NCBI GenBank assembly: GCA_027078545.1
Contig: JALWXN010000004.1
Span: 384,001-448,000 of the forward strand
Length of the DNA stretch: 64,000 nt
DNA from: Nitrososphaeria archaeon
Lineage (GTDB): Archaea > Thermoproteota > Nitrososphaeria > Geothermarchaeales > JDFR-13
Direction of reading: 5' to 3'
The position numbers were made by a program, and so were the translations under genes. Shown here piece after piece: positions 30,840-40,713 of this stretch. How positions within the stretch are numbered: position 1 is the stretch's first letter; each line of letters starts with the position of its first letter. Under the pieces are notes generated by a model that was not told where the DNA came from, made no database searches, and saw only the letters and a program-made list of their open reading frames with translations.

Positions 30840-32027
30840 GTGGGGATGTCGGACAGGGTTAGGAGGTTCGTCGGCCTGGCTAGGGAGCTGGGTGGACATG
30901 TGCTCGGCCTTGAGGAGCCTGTAGCGATAGTCTCGAGCGATGATGCCGACGGCTTATCCGCGGCCTTCCTCATGACCCTCCTACTTGAGGAGGGGGGTAG
31001 GGAGTATGGCGTGGTGATAGTGGATAAGGCTTATCCCGAGCTGGTCAGGGGTATTGGGAAGCTATACTCATCAGCCGTCTTCCTAGACCTGGGTGGCCCC
31101 TTCTACAAGTACTGGGGTGAGGAGGAGCTGGGTAGGTATGTAGTGGTGGACGACCATATGGAGGCTATAAAGCCGCCGGAGGGCCTGGCCTATCTAAATC
31201 CTCATCGGGAGGGTGTTGAGGAGCCCACCCCGAGCAGCGTCATGGCATACCTCATGGCTATGGATCATGTTAAGAATATCGGGAGGTATGCATGGGCAGC
31301 CCTTCTCGGGCTGGGGGAGTCAGGCGCTATACCCACTGGCTACCTTGGCTTAGTCCTGACCCATGCAGTCTCATCGGGGGTGGTGGAGAAGAGGGGGAAG
31401 AGCCTCCGCCTCAGGATACACGACGTGGCTAGGGAGTATAAGTCTCTCTATAAGGATCTGACCCTGGTCTCTACTATGGGCTACTTCGACGAGGCTGGCC
31501 TCGACATAATAGCCTCGATGAAGTTTGGGGGTATGAGGGATGTGCTGGAGAGGGTTGAGGGCTATAGGGAGAGGCGTAAGGAGCTCTTCGACGAGATGTT
31601 CCGCCTAATGGATACTGGTGAGATGGTCTTCCACGGGAGGAGTGTCCAGTGGGTGGAGGATTATAAGGGGCTCTTCTACAACTATAGCCCGAGGGTCTTC
31701 GACACCTATATGTCGACCCTCTCCATGTATGCCCGCTACTTCGACCCTAGGAAGTATATCCTAGGCATAACGAATAGGAACCCCTACATCCCGGGCTATG
31801 GGATGCTGAGTAGTGACTGGGCCTCCATACCGATAAGGACGTCTAGGAAGCTGGCTTTCCGCATCAGGGTTGGCTCTGCCCAGCCGGTATTCGCCCTGGC
31901 GGAGGCCTCGGCCTTCCCACTGGGCGGCCTTGGCTATGGCTACGACGTGATAGGCTCCGTGGTTGTAGAGTCTGGTAGGGTTAGGGAGTTTATAAGGCTC
32001 TTCGACGACCTGGCGGGTGCTAGGTGA
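30840..32027 (+). CDS. DHH-superfamily (RecJ/Cdc45-like) protein with altered motifs
   Basis: SDDADG, FLDLG, VVVDDH (DHH changed to DDH), LNPH. Confidence 0.7.
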   Translation: MGMSDRVRRFVGLARELGGHVLGLEEPVAIVSSDDADGLSAAFLMTLLLEEGGREYGVVIVDKAYPELVRGIGKLYSSAVFLDLGGPFYKYWGEEELGRYVVVDDHMEAIKPPEGLAYLNPHREGVEEPTPSSVMAYLMAMDHVKNIGRYAWAALLGLGESGAIPTGYLGLVLTHAVSSGVVEKRGKSLRLRIHDVAREYKSLYKDLTLVSTMGYFDEAGLDIIASMKFGGMRDVLERVEGYRERRKELFDEMFRLMDTGEMVFHGRSVQWVEDYKGLFYNYSPRVFDTYMSTLSMYARYFDPRKYILGITNRNPYIPGYGMLSSDWASIPIRTSRKLAFRIRVGSAQPVFALAEASAFPLGGLGYGYDVIGSVVVESGRVREFIRLFDDLAGAR

Positions 32028-33601
32028 TGCTCTTCAGGGAGTTTGTCGAGGTGTGTAAGAGGATTAGGGCTGCTAAGGGTATAAACGAGAAGATCGGGCT
32101 TATAGCCAGCTATCTCAAGAGGCTGGATAGGGAGGAGTGGATACCCTACATCCTCTTCCTCACGGGCAACCCTGTCCCCGACACTTTGGAGGGGGGCCTG
32201 GGGGTGGGGCATAGGACCCTTGTAAAGGCTATGAAGAACCCGGTTAGGCCCCTGATAGGCGGTGGGCCACCCAGCCTCCTCGAGGTCTATGGGACGCTCC
32301 TCGAGATAGCTGGTATGAGGGGTAGGGATAGCCAGGCCAGGAGGGAGGGCCTCCTGAGGAGCCTGATGGGTAGGCTTAGCAAGGAGGAGAGGGAGTGGCT
32401 GGCCAGTATAATCATGGGGGAGCCTAGGATAGGGGTGATGACTGGGCATGTGCTGAGGGCCCTGGCCCATGCGCTACACATCTCTGAGGATAAGGTGCGT
32501 AGGCTCTACATGCTGAGGGGGAGTATCCATGAGGTGGCGGAGCTACTGGCAAGGGGTGTGGATCCAGCTAGTGTGGGGCCGCGTCTATATAAGCCGCTTA
32601 GGCCGATGCTAGGCACCCCAGCCACGACAGTCACCGAGGCCTTCAACATACTGGGCGTCTCCAGGGCCGCTGCGGAGGAGAAGTATGACGGCTTCAGGAT
32701 ACAGATCCATATCGGGGATAGAGGGGTAAGGATCTTCAGTAGGAACCTCCTAGACGTGACGCAGAGCTTCCCGGAGCTGGTGGAGTACTCCTCCAGGATC
32801 GAGGCTAGGGAGGCGATACTGGATGGTGAGGCTGTGGCCCTGGGTAGGGATGGTAGGCCCCTACCCTTCCAGTACCTCATGAGGCGCTTCAAGAGGGTGG
32901 AGGATGTTGAGGACTATATGGACTCGATACCCGTTACTATGCGGCTCTTCGACGTGATCTACCTTGATGGTGAGCTCCTCATCGATAGGCCATACATATA
33001 TAGGAGGGAGAGGCTGGAGAGGATCGTCCCCGAGGAGTATCTAGCCAGGGTGGTGCTGGACGCATCGTTGTCCGAGGCGGAGGCGATGTATAGGGAGGCT
33101 ATCGAGGCTGGTCATGAGGGGATCATGCTGAAGAGGATGGACTCTCCCTACGTCCTTGGGAGTAGGGGGAGGTACTGGGCCAAGGTGAAGGAGAAGGAGA
33201 CCCTAGACCTGGTGATAGTTGGTGCAGAGTGGGGGCATGGTAGGCGTAGGGGGTGGCTCAGCGACTACTACCTCGCGGCCTATAACCCCAGGACTGGTGG
33301 CTACGAGATAGTGGGTAAGACGTTCAAGGGGCTCACCGATGAGGAGTTCCAATACATGACTAGGAGGCTTAAGGAGCTCGTGGTTAGGGATGAGGGGTAC
33401 AGGGTCTTCGTCAAGCCTGAGATAGTTGTCGAGGTCGACTTCAACGAGGTTCAGGAGAGCCCAAAGTATAGGAGCGGCTATGCGTTGAGGCTGGCCAGGA
33501 TAAGGAGGATCAGGGAGGATAAGAGCCCCGAGGAGGCCGCCACGATAGACGATATAAGGAGGATTTATGAGGAGCAGTTCCGGAGGAAGGCCCGCCTGTG
33601 A
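32024..33601 (+). CDS. lig: ATP-dependent DNA ligase
   Basis: EKYDGFR, LDGE, FDVIY, EGIMLK, WAKVK, LDLVIVGAEWGHGRR, RIREDK. Confidence 0.96.
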   Translation: MMLFREFVEVCKRIRAAKGINEKIGLIASYLKRLDREEWIPYILFLTGNPVPDTLEGGLGVGHRTLVKAMKNPVRPLIGGGPPSLLEVYGTLLEIAGMRGRDSQARREGLLRSLMGRLSKEEREWLASIIMGEPRIGVMTGHVLRALAHALHISEDKVRRLYMLRGSIHEVAELLARGVDPASVGPRLYKPLRPMLGTPATTVTEAFNILGVSRAAAEEKYDGFRIQIHIGDRGVRIFSRNLLDVTQSFPELVEYSSRIEAREAILDGEAVALGRDGRPLPFQYLMRRFKRVEDVEDYMDSIPVTMRLFDVIYLDGELLIDRPYIYRRERLERIVPEEYLARVVLDASLSEAEAMYREAIEAGHEGIMLKRMDSPYVLGSRGRYWAKVKEKETLDLVIVGAEWGHGRRRGWLSDYYLAAYNPRTGGYEIVGKTFKGLTDEEFQYMTRRLKELVVRDEGYRVFVKPEIVVEVDFNEVQESPKYRSGYALRLARIRRIREDKSPEEAATIDDIRRIYEEQFRRKARL

Positions 33602-33645
33602 CTATATAGGTGTGACCACCGTCCCATCCAAGATAATCACAGCAT

Positions 33646-33653
33646 CTATAAAG
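33646..33653 (+). promoter_or_regulatory. Putative TATA box for the structured RNA
   Basis: CTATAAAG about 25 nt upstream of the 5' end of the terminal helix, in otherwise GC-rich DNA. Confidence 0.5.
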
Positions 33654-33677
33654 GGTTTAGACACTCCCAGTAGAGTG

Positions 33678-34168
33678 GCATCGGCCAGCCCGAGGGGCTG
33701 GCCCGGGAGGCCTAGGATGGGCCCCTGGATGAAGGGGTCCAGCCTATAAGGAGGTCTCCAAGGGGGTTCCCCATAGCCCCCTGGAGAACCCTCCGACCCA
33801 CCCCGTTCCATAGGGGATTTGGACCCCAAAGGGGGAGGGGGAGCACCCTGATTCCCCCTGAGGGGTATCACGCATTGGGCCGACCCCTATGGAGCGGGGT
33901 CATGGGCCACTCCGGGTTGGAGGGTTCTCCAAGGAGGGTTATGGGGAGTCCTCTAAGGAGGCCTCCGAAGTGGTTGGACCCTCTCATCCAAGGGCTCGTA
34001 TATAGGCTTGGTGTGCCTCCTAGGCCTCCAAGCCTCTGGGAACCCCCCTGGGGATGGGCAGGGGGGTGGCTGGCCACCACTTACCCCGGCAAGCCCTGAA
34101 CCAGGAGGGTTCCCGACGGGCCCGAGAGGCTTGGGGGTCGTGGGCCGGCCCCTCGGGCTGGCCGATGC
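33678..34168 (+). ncRNA. Unknown large highly structured RNA (~490 nt), or an RNA-structured non-autonomous element
   Basis: 27-bp terminal helix 33678-33704/34142-34168 plus nested long helices; nearly all non-Watson-Crick oppositions are G-U on the + strand; no credible ORF. Confidence 0.7.
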
Positions 34169-34193
34169 ACCCCCGCTAGAGTCCTATCGATTC

Positions 34194-35273
34194 CTACTCC
34201 TTGACAGCCCTGCTTATCCTCTGTATAGCTAGGTGTATGACGATCTCCGTCTCCCTCTGGTATGGATTCCTCCTCCTCAAGGTCTTCCCATCTGTATAGA
34301 TCTCTATATACCCTGTCCTACCCGCTATGCTGGAGAGTATGGTCAGGGCCTCGTTATACATCCTTGTCTTGGCTAGGCTGTATGCGAGTAGGGATGCCTG
34401 TAGCGGGTCGTATATAGGGTGGTTCTCCCTGCCGGATGGGCTCTGGCATAGTGTCCTATCCTCTATATGTAGAGCCCTATACATATGTCCCATGTGGCTC
34501 CTGAGCCTCTCGTCCCCCCTATAGGCTAGGGGAAGCACTATCGCCCAGCCGTCTATATGTGTGGCTAGACTCCTGGCCGAGGTTGTGAGTATATGGGTTA
34601 TGAATCTCCTCCCGTCCCAGAAGCTGTCCTCTATCCTGCTTATCAGGTTGGTAAGGATCTTCTCATACTTCTCGGAGTCCCCACCCTCCAGCGCCGCGTT
34701 GTAGGCCTTCTCCAGGGCGGCTAGGTAGGCGAGGTTTGTGGATAGGAGATTCCCACCCCTACCCATGCCTAGCCAGTCCTCGTCGGCCTCCTGCTCGACG
34801 AGCCAGTTCCTATTGATGTCCCTCCTCCTTAGGTATTCAAGCCCCTCTATGGCTGTGGGTAGGAGGTCTTCGAGGCCCCCTGTGAAGAGTATGTATTCGA
34901 GTAGGGATGCCGTGGCTAGGGCTGTGGCTAGGGGTGATGGATACCTGGAGTAGGTGGTCTTCCTCCCCTGGGAGATTGTGTCTGGGAAGCTTCCCGCCGT
35001 GTAGTCATCGACCACCTCTACGCCCCGGGGGGATCTATACTCATCGCCCCTTCTGAGCTGGGCCTTCTCGAGCCTGGGTATCGCCTCGGAGGCTAGTGTG
35101 TAGTAGGCAACCTCATCCTCCTCCCTAAGTAGGAGTAGGACTAGGCTGTGTATCCTCGTGTCTAGCGCCTTGTCTAGGCTCCTCTCAAGGCTGGTTATGT
35201 TGTGTTTATACCTCTTGGATATCTCGGCTGTTGCGTCTAGTCCCCTCCTGTATAGGTCGACCCTGATCTCCAT
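34194..35273 (-). CDS. Divergent six-hairpin (alpha/alpha)6 glycosidase-like protein
   Basis: EGLEYLRRRDINRNWLVEQ...DW, STNLAY..AL, IEDSFWDG pattern. Confidence 0.5.
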   Translation of the reverse strand: MEIRVDLYRRGLDATAEISKRYKHNITSLERSLDKALDTRIHSLVLLLLREEDEVAYYTLASEAIPRLEKAQLRRGDEYRSPRGVEVVDDYTAGSFPDTISQGRKTTYSRYPSPLATALATASLLEYILFTGGLEDLLPTAIEGLEYLRRRDINRNWLVEQEADEDWLGMGRGGNLLSTNLAYLAALEKAYNAALEGGDSEKYEKILTNLISRIEDSFWDGRRFITHILTTSARSLATHIDGWAIVLPLAYRGDERLRSHMGHMYRALHIEDRTLCQSPSGRENHPIYDPLQASLLAYSLAKTRMYNEALTILSSIAGRTGYIEIYTDGKTLRRRNPYQRETEIVIHLAIQRISRAVKE

Positions 35274-36496: not shown

Positions 36497-37318
36497 ATGG
36501 CCAGGGTACTACTAACCAATGACGATGGATACTTCTCACCCGGGATAAGGAGGATGATCGACGTCCTCTCCCAGTTCACCGACCTCGTGGTTGTATGCCC
36601 TGAGCAGCAGAGGAGTGCTGCTGGGCTCAGCGTGACCCTCCACAAGCCGCTCAGGATCAGGGTCGCCAACTATAGGAACCAGACCTGCTACCTCGTCAAC
36701 GGGACTACCGGTGACTGTGTGAGCCTAGGCCTGTTCCACATCCTTGAGAAGCCACCCGACATGGTTGTATCGGGGATAAACATAGGCGAGAATATAAGCC
36801 TGGTCGAGTTCTTCATGAGCGGTACCGTGGCGGGTGCACTCCTAGCCGCTATCCACAATATCCCCAGCATATCCTTCTCGAAGAGTGTGGAGAGCGCCGA
36901 CGTTATCGGTGGGCGTGTAAGGAGCGGGGGTTTCGAGGAGGCCGCCAGGATAGCTGGTGAGATAGTGAGGTACGTCCTTGACGAGGGCCTCCCAGAGGGA
37001 GTCGACATGTTCAACGTTAACTTCCCCAAGAAGATTACCCGTGAGACTAGGATAGTGGTAACCCGCCTAGCCAGGCTGAGCCTAGTAACCAAGGTCTATG
37101 TGAGGCACGACCCCAGAGGGAGGGAGTACTACTGGATATGGGGGGAGAAGTTCAAGAACTTCCCCAGGGGGACCGATGGATACGAGGTATTCATAAATGG
37201 GAACATATCCCTAACACCCGTCTCACTATCCAGCCTATCAACAACCCCAGACCTGAAGAAGGTGCAGAGAGTAGCAGACGCCGTTAACGAGATATTGGAA
37301 AGCTATTTCAGAAGCTAA
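36497..37318 (+). CDS. surE: 5'/3'-nucleotidase SurE
   Basis: LLTNDDG, VSGINIGEN, SGTVAGA, NVNFP. Confidence 0.96.
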   Translation: MARVLLTNDDGYFSPGIRRMIDVLSQFTDLVVVCPEQQRSAAGLSVTLHKPLRIRVANYRNQTCYLVNGTTGDCVSLGLFHILEKPPDMVVSGINIGENISLVEFFMSGTVAGALLAAIHNIPSISFSKSVESADVIGGRVRSGGFEEAARIAGEIVRYVLDEGLPEGVDMFNVNFPKKITRETRIVVTRLARLSLVTKVYVRHDPRGREYYWIWGEKFKNFPRGTDGYEVFINGNISLTPVSLSSLSTTPDLKKVQRVADAVNEILESYFRS

Positions 37319-37522
37319 TGTTACTTAAAGCAATCATAATTATTTAGGATTTTATCCTCCGCGATTTAATATTAAACGATAACCTGAAACTAATTATAAT
37401 TAGTTGAGTACTATTTTGAGATACCCCTGTCAAAATACAGCTTCTCAATATATACATCTCTGACTAAAGTAAATGTCACATATTATGTTGGTCAAAGATA
37501 GTGATTTTAAGTGGTGATTACC

Positions 37523-37642
37523 ATGAAGTATAATCCACCCGAAATAACATCAATGGACTTACTGTTAGCGCCATTATGCCTCTGTAATTGCAACTGTGGA
37601 CTGCTGTCAGGTTCGGGAGCTGGAGGAGGGAGTGCTAAGTAG
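37523..37642 (+). CDS. RiPP precursor peptide, 39 aa, Cys/Gly-rich core (absent from ORF track)
   Basis: MKYNPPEITSMDLLLAPLCLCNCNCGLLSGSGAGGGSAK; GGTGA SD at 37513-37517; YxxPxI leader; first gene of the operon. Confidence 0.88.
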   Translation: MKYNPPEITSMDLLLAPLCLCNCNCGLLSGSGAGGGSAK

Positions 37643-37658
37643 CCGCTGGTGGCTAAGC

Positions 37659-38567
37659 GTGCACATAAGAGTCATCAGCATCACAAAGACATACGGTGCT
37701 AGTGTCAGAGCCGTAGAATCCCTATCCTTTTTTATAAACTCAGGAGAATCTGTAGCGCTAATAGGACCCAATGGGGCAGGAAAAACGACAACTATACATA
37801 TCATTCTTGGGCTATTGAAGCCTGATGAAGGAGAAGTTTATATAGACGGAGTCAACATGATGGATGAAAAGGAATCATCGGAAATACGTTCTAGAATAGG
37901 TTTTGCACCACAGAACATCGCGTTGGATTTTTTCCTTACTGTTGAGGATAACATCGAACTGTACCTGAAGTTAAATGGACTATCAAGAGCGAATAGGCGA
38001 GAAAGAACAAAAAGGATACTTGAGTTAATGGGTTTATATGAATATAGGAATAGGAGGGTGGAGACGCTTTCAGGAGGATTAGCCAGACGTGTTCACATAG
38101 CGAGGGCACTGGCTCTCGACCCTGAATTGATTATTTTGGATGAGCCTACTGTTGGATTGGACCCTGTTTCAAGGAGACTTTTCTGGGAAGCTCTCAAGGG
38201 ATACATTAAGGAGTCGGGTGCAACACTCCTGTGGAGTAGCCATTATTTGGAGGAGATCGAAAGAAATGCCGATCGAGTGATTCTACTAAATAGAGGCAGA
38301 AAGTTGATGGACGCTCCTCCTGGAGAGATTGTATCCAAGTTTTCGAGACCTGTACTCGAGCTAGAAATACCTAATGAAGAGGTTTTAAAGTCACTTACAT
38401 CGAGATTCGGCGGTAACTATGTAAATGGAAGGCTCATCATTGACGATGTCGACTGGGATGATCTGCCCAAGGTTATAGCAAGCCTGAGTAAGCTTGGTGC
38501 TGAGGTACGGCTGTTGAGGTGGGGTAGTAAGTCACTTGAGGAGGTGTATCTCGAGGTGATGTCATGA
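37659..38567 (+). CDS. ABC exporter ATP-binding subunit (DrrA/CcmA-like)
   Basis: GPNGAGKT, LSGG, LDEPT, SSHY; probable GTG start 37659 after GGTGG. Confidence 0.93.
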   Translation: MHIRVISITKTYGASVRAVESLSFFINSGESVALIGPNGAGKTTTIHIILGLLKPDEGEVYIDGVNMMDEKESSEIRSRIGFAPQNIALDFFLTVEDNIELYLKLNGLSRANRRERTKRILELMGLYEYRNRRVETLSGGLARRVHIARALALDPELIILDEPTVGLDPVSRRLFWEALKGYIKESGATLLWSSHYLEEIERNADRVILLNRGRKLMDAPPGEIVSKFSRPVLELEIPNEEVLKSLTSRFGGNYVNGRLIIDDVDWDDLPKVIASLSKLGAEVRLLRWGSKSLEEVYLEVMS

Positions 38568-39316
38568 GTATTGTTATAACCCTTATCGAGAGGGAGTTCA
38601 AAATACTGTTTAGGAGTAAGTTGCTTATGCTTCTCATGATAGCTCAGCCAGTAATTTTGATATTCTTGTTCGTCCTGTCTATGGGTAATGTAGTCGGTGA
38701 GATAACTTATCGGGGTATCACTGTTAGCTATGTGGAGTTCATGGTTCCAAGCGTGGTTATTCTTACCCTTATGTTTGTTACTATGATGGTGAGCCAATCC
38801 GTTTTCAACGAGAAGTTTTCCAACATGCTGATAATCCTGTTATCTACGAGGATGACAGCTAGGGACTACATCGTAAGTAAATTGATAACCAACACTTTTA
38901 TATCATTAACACAGGCGATGCTTATGCTAACAGCTTATCTATTGATTATAGGAGGAACCAACATAATATCAATTATATATGCTCTTCCACCAATAATAAT
39001 TGCATCACTGACACTTTCGGGGATATATCTCTCTCTTCTAGGGTATCTCAAAACAATTTCAGCTTTCTCGAGTGCCGTAAACATACTTACATTGATAATG
39101 ATATATTCTGCACCTCTTTTCTACCCTTTGGAGGCGATGCCTTTCCCTCTAAATTTTGCTAGTAATGTTAATCCTTTAACATATATTGTTGAATCAACAA
39201 GGATAGGTTATTTATTAAAGAGTTTTGATGTATCAATATGGATATCCTCGATAATTTGTATAATCTTCATATTACTATCCATTCATACAATGAAAAATAT
39301 GCTTACGGAGGTTTAA
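38564..39316 (+). CDS. ABC-2 type exporter permease
   Basis: 6 TM; REFK, YVEFMVP, FYPLEAMP, NPLTYIVE; ATGA overlap with the ATPase. Confidence 0.92.
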   Translation: MSIVITLIEREFKILFRSKLLMLLMIAQPVILIFLFVLSMGNVVGEITYRGITVSYVEFMVPSVVILTLMFVTMMVSQSVFNEKFSNMLIILLSTRMTARDYIVSKLITNTFISLTQAMLMLTAYLLIIGGTNIISIIYALPPIIIASLTLSGIYLSLLGYLKTISAFSSAVNILTLIMIYSAPLFYPLEAMPFPLNFASNVNPLTYIVESTRIGYLLKSFDVSIWISSIICIIFILLSIHTMKNMLTEV

Positions 39317-39318
39317 AA

Positions 39319-40713
39319 ATGATAGAAAGAAGAATGATAATTCAGGATACTCCACTTGAAAAATTAAGGGAGAACTTGAAAAGATTAATATGCATCAAAT
39401 TTAAAAATCTCTATGTGCTTTTTGATCCAGAGACAGTCAGTTGGATCCCCATTAGTGACGATGATATCGCAATGCTTAGAGAATTTTATTGGGGTGGCTA
39501 TCTAAGAGAGAAAAAAGGATTTCATCTGATTGGTAGGATGATATCGTCCTTAATTGGAGTGTCTTATAGAATAATTTATAATAAATTACTTCCCTACCCA
39601 TCAGTGTATTATTTGGAAATCACAAAGGGTTGCAACCTTAGATGTGTTTACTGTTATATAGGTTCTGCGCCTGAATTGCTCAGTTATAAGGGAAAGATGA
39701 AAGTTGAGAACTGGCTTGAACTGATAAATCAAATAAATACCCTTGGGGGCAGAGAAGTAATTTTTACTGGAGGCGAACCATTACTAAAGTATGATGACAT
39801 TTTATCTATCGGAAAGTATGCAAAGGAACATGGTCTTATTACATCTCTCATTACCAATGGTGTTTTGCTGAATTCTAAGAGAGTTGAGGAGCTCTCTAGG
39901 ATTATAGATAACATCACTGTTAGCCTGGATAGTCATATAGGTTCAGTTAATGCGGTTACAAGAGGTTATAGAGAGACACATAGAATAATATATTACATTA
40001 AGAGCCTCCTCGAGAAGGGAGTAAATATTTATGTAAATTGTGTTGTAACAAGAAGTAACGTAAATAGCTTGACTAGTTTCTTGGATCATTTACAAAAGAT
40101 CGGAGTGACCCCTGATAAAATAAAATTTATTCTCATGGCACCAGCAGGAAGGGCTTTAACATTGGATCATTTCTCAGTCAACCCAATGGATTTAGTCAAA
40201 GAGTCATTTTTATATAACCTTAGGATGGGAGTCATTCCTAATCACAGTCGTACGGCTTTTAATAAATTTTCAAGAAAGTACATGTGTGGGGCTTCCGTAT
40301 CTGAATTATATATAGATTGTGATGGAAACGTTTATCCATGTAGAATGTTGGTGACAAAGTCTGGACATCTTGGAAATGTCCTTAAAAACTCATTGAAGGA
40401 CATACTTGACAGTTCCAATAGGTATAATTTTGTTGATTCGATATCCAAACCCAATTTAAAGGTATGTAAAGATTGTATTTATAGAAATGTATGTGCTGGG
40501 GGGTGCAGAGGCAATGTCATAGGTTCCCAAGGTAATTTGACGGATCCTGATCCCATTAATTGCATTATCGTTAAAAATACTTTTCCTCTGTATATGATAG
40601 TCGAATCCTACGGCTTAGAGGTTCTTAGAAATCTGAATGATAGAAATGTATTTCGACAAGTGGAGGTTGTTAGTTCATGGTTGGAAGAAGATTTAGACCT
40701 AAAGAAAGTGTGA
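39319..40713 (+). CDS. Radical SAM/SPASM peptide maturase
   Basis: CNLRCVYC, TGGEP, TNG, VSLDS; SPASM CGA..IDCDGNVYPC..GN..CKDC...CAGGC...C; ATG 39319 after GGAGG. Confidence 0.93.
   Translation: MIERRMIIQDTPLEKLRENLKRLICIKFKNLYVLFDPETVSWIPISDDDIAMLREFYWGGYLREKKGFHLIGRMISSLIGVSYRIIYNKLLPYPSVYYLEITKGCNLRCVYCYIGSAPELLSYKGKMKVENWLELINQINTLGGREVIFTGGEPLLKYDDILSIGKYAKEHGLITSLITNGVLLNSKRVEELSRIIDNITVSLDSHIGSVNAVTRGYRETHRIIYYIKSLLEKGVNIYVNCVVTRSNVNSLTSFLDHLQKIGVTPDKIKFILMAPAGRALTLDHFSVNPMDLVKESFLYNLRMGVIPNHSRTAFNKFSRKYMCGASVSELYIDCDGNVYPCRMLVTKSGHLGNVLKNSLKDILDSSNRYNFVDSISKPNLKVCKDCIYRNVCAGGCRGNVIGSQGNLTDPDPINCIIVKNTFPLYMIVESYGLEVLRNLNDRNVFRQVEVVSSWLEEDLDLKKV

Follow-up and report, generated by a model that had tools for sequence, protein, structure and literature searches.

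Comparative sequence analysis indicates that a stretch of about 490 bases, located 3' of a DNA ligase gene in the 64,000-nucleotide segment of archaeal DNA analyzed here (the window), is a member of a genuine and hitherto undescribed family of large non-coding RNAs in archaea. The preliminary description had proposed a new large archaeal RNA encoded on the plus strand, and this proposal is upheld by conservation throughout the order, covariation, the presence of a dedicated promoter and the lack of a corresponding Rfam family. To our knowledge, few large RNAs beyond rRNA, SRP RNA and RNase P RNA have been described in archaea, and no description of this family was found in the open-access literature text. 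The sequence comparison shows a conserved RNA gene that stands on its own and has a fold under selection, and its product is very probably transcribed and folded as outlined below. The overall functional reading is more tentative and, in our estimate, falls somewhat short of an even chance: a stand-alone, regulated, trans-acting structural RNA that dimerizes and offers a partner its conserved internal loop.

Locus, strand and spread of the RNA gene

The gene (33677–34169, plus strand, 493 nt) is framed by two stop codons, that of the DNA ligase gene at 33601 and that of a convergent gene at 34194. Its ends were placed from the promoter spacing and from the terminal bases conserved among the homologues, and the likely start is G33677, one base 5' of the start given before. 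The plus strand of 33678–34168 has a predicted folding energy of -371.6 kcal/mol, compared to -255.5 +/- 7.6 for shuffled sequences (z -15.3; 0 of 100 shuffles), and the energy for the minus strand is -329.3. The preliminary description deduced the strand from more than ten G-U pairs on the plus strand, in agreement with the count of 23 such pairs in the plus-strand fold versus 6 in the minus-strand fold. In the alignment of homologues, the ratio of G-U to A-C cells in arm 2, counted for the plus strand, is 22:10; this bias is modest across the copies and is missing in G001, G006 and G016. Promoter orientation together with the G-U versus A-C cells identifies the plus strand as the RNA strand, as far as can be judged from such comparisons. 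Genome-wide, the RNA locus is the strongest inverted repeat with the exception of a CRISPR array (G000:C4:548700–549995, next to cas genes), the other strong signal of this kind in the genome; in this array, two spacers are mutual reverse complements and one spacer occurs twice.

The upstream neighbor (32024–33601, plus strand; PF01068, PF04675, PF04679) encodes an ATP-dependent DNA ligase of 525 aa and is the last gene of a run that contains polB. Most genomes of the order encode two ATP-dependent DNA ligases that are about 39% identical, in this case the shorter, 525-aa protein and the product of G000:C1:35008–36414. The convergent gene (34194–35273, minus strand, 359 aa) has no Pfam match and likely encodes a six-hairpin glycoside hydrolase, the lead being atlas look-alikes at 0.94 that resemble glucoamylases and invertases. 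Farther downstream in the window (approximately 37200–40700), where an ABC transporter pair and a radical-SAM gene are located, the GC content falls to 36–45%, which suggests an acquired island.

The family is represented in 15 of the 17 Geothermarchaeales genomes, with one copy in each. The copies are 335 to 493 nt long and, one near-identical genome aside, are 33–60% identical to the copy in the window. All four congeners were recovered by DNA search, and reading the sequence 3' of the ligase ortholog added six more genomes of the same family and one of a second family; an arm 2 model detected the copies in G007 and G009, at another locus near a ferredoxin-oxidoreductase operon, and a pattern scan recovered the copy in G015. 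At least five metagenome contigs, among the 80 matches listed, carry true copies (73–86 bits), one of which is a new sequence. The copies in G007, G009 and the five metagenome contigs were found with models that had not been built on them or by an independent pattern scan. In both genomes of the order in which no copy was found, G005 and G014, the ligase gene is truncated by a contig end before the RNA site. The RNA is located 3' of the ligase gene in 13 genomes, the exceptions being G007, G009 and L107; three copies adjoin the ferredoxin-oxidoreductase operon instead of the ligase, and therefore the RNA gene is free-standing. Searches of 133 other Nitrososphaeria genomes with models R1 and R2 yielded no match; absence outside the order is weakly indicated because the same models miss the true G015 copy. 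Several further candidates were rejected, namely two 26-bit matches in a sample of 150 genomes of the phylum, which have neither the family termini nor the core; L123 (soil, high GC), a chance match without a closing helix; and two chance matches inside genes of G018. In viral contigs, none of the 18 pattern matches scored with the model. No open reading frame was found to be conserved across the copies.

A conserved arm, a variable arm and palindromic loops

The RNA consists of a closing helix and two arms, and all the helices previously named in both arms were recovered in place. The closing helix P1, which has 27 bp with one U-G pair as described, is formed by 33678–33704 and 34142–34168; in its first 15 pairs, 191 of the 195 cells are paired among 13 distinct sequences, with several pair types per position. 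The 5' strand of P1 can also fold on itself (33683–33703), and this local hairpin outperforms shuffled sequences in most copies, although not in all, so that it may be a temporary structure that guides co-transcriptional folding.

Arm 1 (33706–34029) is a long, interrupted rod, variable in both length and sequence, and is largely responsible for the differing lengths of the copies. At its base, two folds lie within 3 kcal/mol of each other (-370.1 for the version in the preliminary description versus -373.0). The tip of this arm had been interpreted as a junction of three small hairpins; comparison of genera instead supports a nested, interrupted hairpin (33823–33866) that comprises a 5-bp helix, a short internal loop, and a 6–7-bp helix with its loop. 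The nested 5-bp helix shows compensatory changes across genera, with the versions ACCCC/GGGGU, GCCCU/AGGGC, ACUCC/GGAGU and GCUCC/GGAGC. The arm 1 tips of G011 and G013 (L059:1700–1809 and L062:1300–1410) score 33 bits with the arm 2 model, so that arm 1 may have arisen from arm 2 by an old duplication.

Arm 2 (34028–34134) is the conserved domain. In the model-fitted alignment, 25 of its 31 pairs are changed on both sides and 95.5% of the cells are paired (0 of 500 shuffles); in a structure-blind MAFFT alignment, the respective values are 22 of 31 and 91.8%, kinship of the sequences being ignored in both counts. Slid controls score far lower. Thus, covariation among homologues, in the form of compensatory changes, extends over arm 2, the closing helix and the arm 1 tip helix. 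The near-invariant core of the arm (34057–34095) includes GGC-A on the 5' side and GGCAR-GCC on the 3' side, which together delimit a 1x5 internal loop, followed by the tip hairpin; the pairs above this loop are swapped from C-G to G-C in this genome. The GGAT/TGAA loop noted earlier is present (34052–34055 with 34097–34100) but not conserved, the other copies having GGA/GAA or a fully paired helix at this place. The internal loop of the core is rather likely to be the site where a partner binds.

The apical loop of arm 2 consists of 1–3 bases and a 6-base palindrome in 14 of the 15 genomes. The palindrome is UGGCCA in this genus (34071–34076 in the window), GCCGGC in six genera and UCGCGA in G015, and there is none in G016. 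The chance of a palindrome in a random GC-rich loop is 0.02–0.11, so that two independent switches that both keep a palindrome are unlikely to be accidental. In OLE RNA, palindrome switching has been interpreted as a sign of a kissing loop, and the contact was confirmed by cryo-EM (PMC12286853). The reasoning is that neighboring loop bases are unable to pair with each other in the same molecule, so that a switch from one palindrome to another would point to intermolecular pairing. Two copies of the RNA could accordingly dimerize through a symmetric kissing loop, a prediction to which we give an even chance on the strength of two independent switches set against one exception (G016). In some copies, part of this loop is predicted by energy models to be paired within the hairpin. 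A second palindrome, GGGCCC, occupies a basal bulge on the 3' side of arm 2 (34118–34123); it is invariant in 13 of the 13 copies from the same family and in the metagenome copies, and being invariant, it says nothing about pairing; in the second family, it is absent.

The main alternative to a dimer, which we consider unlikely albeit worthy of attention, is a monomeric ribonucleoprotein RNA in which the arm 2 loops are read by a protein or paired intramolecularly (e.g., the GCC of the tip with GGC), the palindromes being incidental. This possibility draws on the presence of GCC in the tip of all copies but that of G015 and on G016, where the palindrome is missing and yet the tip retains a 5-base match to a downstream GGGCA. 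The G015 tip points in the opposite direction since it has no GCC and nevertheless keeps a palindrome; besides, the tip and the bulge are about 25 bp apart on the same arm, a distance that would make intramolecular bridging hard.

Promoter, putative operator and candidate regulon

The TATAAA sequence reported about 25 nt upstream of the RNA is readily seen at 33647–33652 (plus strand), and an A/T-rich box is found at the same distance in every homologue. Directly 5' of the TATA box is a putative transcription factor site, a two-part operator TGTRAC-N18/19-nnnACA (33611–33641, plus strand), which recurs at -66 to -68 in 13 of the 13 distinct homologues and in G015, that is, in all 14 promoters examined. 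In this genome, 8 of the 60 intergenic half-sites have a partner at the operator spacing compared to 2.3 expected from other spacings (p 0.002; p 0.009 without the RNA's own site), and across 14 genomes, there are about 60 matches to the pattern versus 23 to the reversed pattern, overlaps included.

These sites suggest a small regulon. Two of them flank ORB-like repeats between orc1/cdc6 and a divergent gene (G000:C4:151676–152083) for a 135-aa winged-helix protein, a candidate operator-binding factor, in an intergenic region (G000:C4:151356–151675, L252:2356–2675) that is found throughout the order and is likely to be a replication origin, going by its sequence. The half-site on the orc1 side recurs in six other genomes, and the orc1 operator often consists of no more than a half-site. 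Other sites are found 5' of a serine recombinase gene in several genera, before genes for large surface-type proteins and, in one genus, before another cdc6 paralog. Taken together, the distribution of sites makes regulation shared by the RNA and the orc1/cdc6 origin region a plausible prospect, if one that we would not quite put at even odds.

In addition to three operator sites, the locus G000:C4:798143–803381 (L251) encompasses genes for the serine recombinase, two DUF2589 proteins and a 513-aa protein of the surface type. Between G000 and G002, which are otherwise 98–99% identical, the operator before the recombinase gene has wholly different spacers, whereas the flanks are alike. On the minus strand, within a leader of about 270 nt that connects a promoter of the same type to the surface protein gene, there is a structured stretch (G000:C4:803195–803315), possibly a small RNA or a regulatory leader. 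The recombinase itself is unlikely to bind the operator because the operator is kept in genomes where the recombinase was not found with this query (G004, G007, G015 and G016). A BirA-type operator was also considered; its half-site, as we take it to be, differs from that of the RNA operator. A literature search on the operator found nothing relevant.

These features can be combined in a provisional mechanism. Sequence comparison indicates a single chromosomal gene that has a TATA promoter of its own and would yield an RNA of 335–493 nt with the closing helix, the variable arm 1 and the conserved arm 2. Two such molecules would then join via the palindromic apical loops of arm 2 in a symmetric kissing complex, with GGGCCC possibly providing an additional contact. 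Beneath the tip, the near-invariant 1x5 internal loop would bind a protein or dock on another RNA, and arm 1 would serve as a stiff double-stranded spacer, the length of which hardly matters. A factor acting on the -66 operator would switch the RNA gene along with a few other genes, among them the orc1/cdc6 origin region. With such shared switching, the RNA would probably not be constitutive but linked to the cell cycle or the state of growth. A more specific proposal, that a self-assembling RNA co-switched with Orc1/Cdc6 plays a part in replicating the chromosome or in the cell cycle, appears improbable at present, and we are aware of no archaeal RNA with such a role. The retention of a single copy throughout the order, in small genomes, points to an important job. 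The high stability of the RNA and its accessibility to in vitro synthesis make the predicted dimer testable without culturing, and the shared operator offers a handle on the timing of RNA production, besides hinting at a regulon in the surroundings of the replication origin that has not been described before.

Relationship to known RNAs

An Rfam search yields no match at the gathering score, the best hit being 27.9 bits on the wrong strand, and at E values up to 10, only sub-threshold hairpin matches appear. Neither this copy nor the parts of four homologues that were searched match any Rfam family, those of OLE, ROOL, GOLLD, 6S and Ms1 included. As had been noted, RNase P motifs are lacking: there is neither a P4 pseudoknot nor conserved regions I and V, and RF02357 reaches only 11 bits (E 8) at the locus. 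The true RNase P RNA is encoded elsewhere (G000:C4:111970–112231, L003; 132 bits); this molecule is short (262 nt), its P15 is closed by a 3-base loop, and there is no apparent P16/P17. Among features of guide RNAs, there are no conserved C and D boxes or K-turn, and there is no ACA tail, the 3' ends being variable among homologues. Ro60 (TROVE, PF05731), the partner of Y RNAs, was not found in the genome (1.24 Mb, 92% complete). Resemblances to the HDV ribozyme, the SAM-I riboswitch, a K-turn, a bulge-helix-bulge motif and a tRNA-like 3' end were dropped after comparison with the homologues by eye.

A resting-state decoy that binds RNA polymerase or, alternatively, a general transcription factor, in the manner of 6S RNA or Ms1, would account for a rod-like, stand-alone and apparently regulated RNA. 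We nevertheless regard this as quite improbable: no open bubble is conserved in the center, conservation falls on a terminal arm instead, neither model matches, and the copies differ in length by 150 nt.

Still less probable is a diverged second SRP-like RNA. The three-way layout, a closing helix with two arms, is similar to that of the SRP S domain, and CAGG facing GGCA in this genome is presumably reminiscent of SRP helix 8. This likeness, however, disappears in the homologues, where it resolves into a swapped pair and the 1x5 loop. The lack of SRP motifs noted earlier holds in that RF01857 has no match at the locus up to E 10 and neither a helix-8 symmetric loop nor a GNRA tetraloop is present, their place in the homologues being taken by the 1x5 loop and an apical loop of 7–9 bases; furthermore, the true SRP RNA lies elsewhere (G000:C4:109171–109486, 143 bits), and the genome encodes a single SRP54.

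The preliminary description had also raised an integrated viroid-like or circularizable RNA; for this reading, widened to self-cleaving RNAs, the rod-like, very stable fold would speak. This reading is hardly tenable given that there is no match to a ribozyme family, no hammerhead core, no conserved ORF and no copy in viral contigs, that no reverse transcriptase was found in the genome, and that a single copy with a host-type promoter is inherited vertically. Least credible of all is a DNA-level element (a MITE or cruciform) or a mere terminator, notwithstanding the long inverted repeats and the location between convergent genes in most genomes, because there is one copy per genome at a chromosomal site fixed across two families, the loops are conserved, the promoter is oriented, and the form is kept at a second locus with other neighbors; the MITE variant put forward before is not supported.

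Several known systems come closest to this RNA. The retroviral dimer initiation site of the HIV-1 type combines 1–3 loop bases with a GC-rich 6-base palindrome that differs by lineage, as is the case in arm 2; the archaeal RNA differs in being the product of a cellular gene with no coding or packaging role, and the bases flanking its palindrome are not the conserved purines of that site. Archaeal SRP RNA (RF01857) shares the size class, the closing helix and the long rod but has an Alu domain, helix-8 loops and a GNRA tetraloop that are missing here. With archaeal RNase P RNA (RF00373, RF02357), the common features are the size class and the short word GCAAG, which recalls J5/15. 6S RNA and mycobacterial Ms1 are likewise rod-like, stand-alone and probably regulated, in contrast to which the present RNA is branched, with no conserved central bubble and no model match. 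OLE RNA, ROOL and GOLLD are large bacterial non-coding RNAs that form RNA-only multimers (PMC12286853). Like these, the archaeal RNA is large, stand-alone and heavily paired, and its loop switches between palindromes as does L9.3 of OLE, with three palindromes and one exception; unlike them, it comes from archaea, has a smaller size and much less branching, and is built as a rod of two arms for which a dimer is predicted from sequence.
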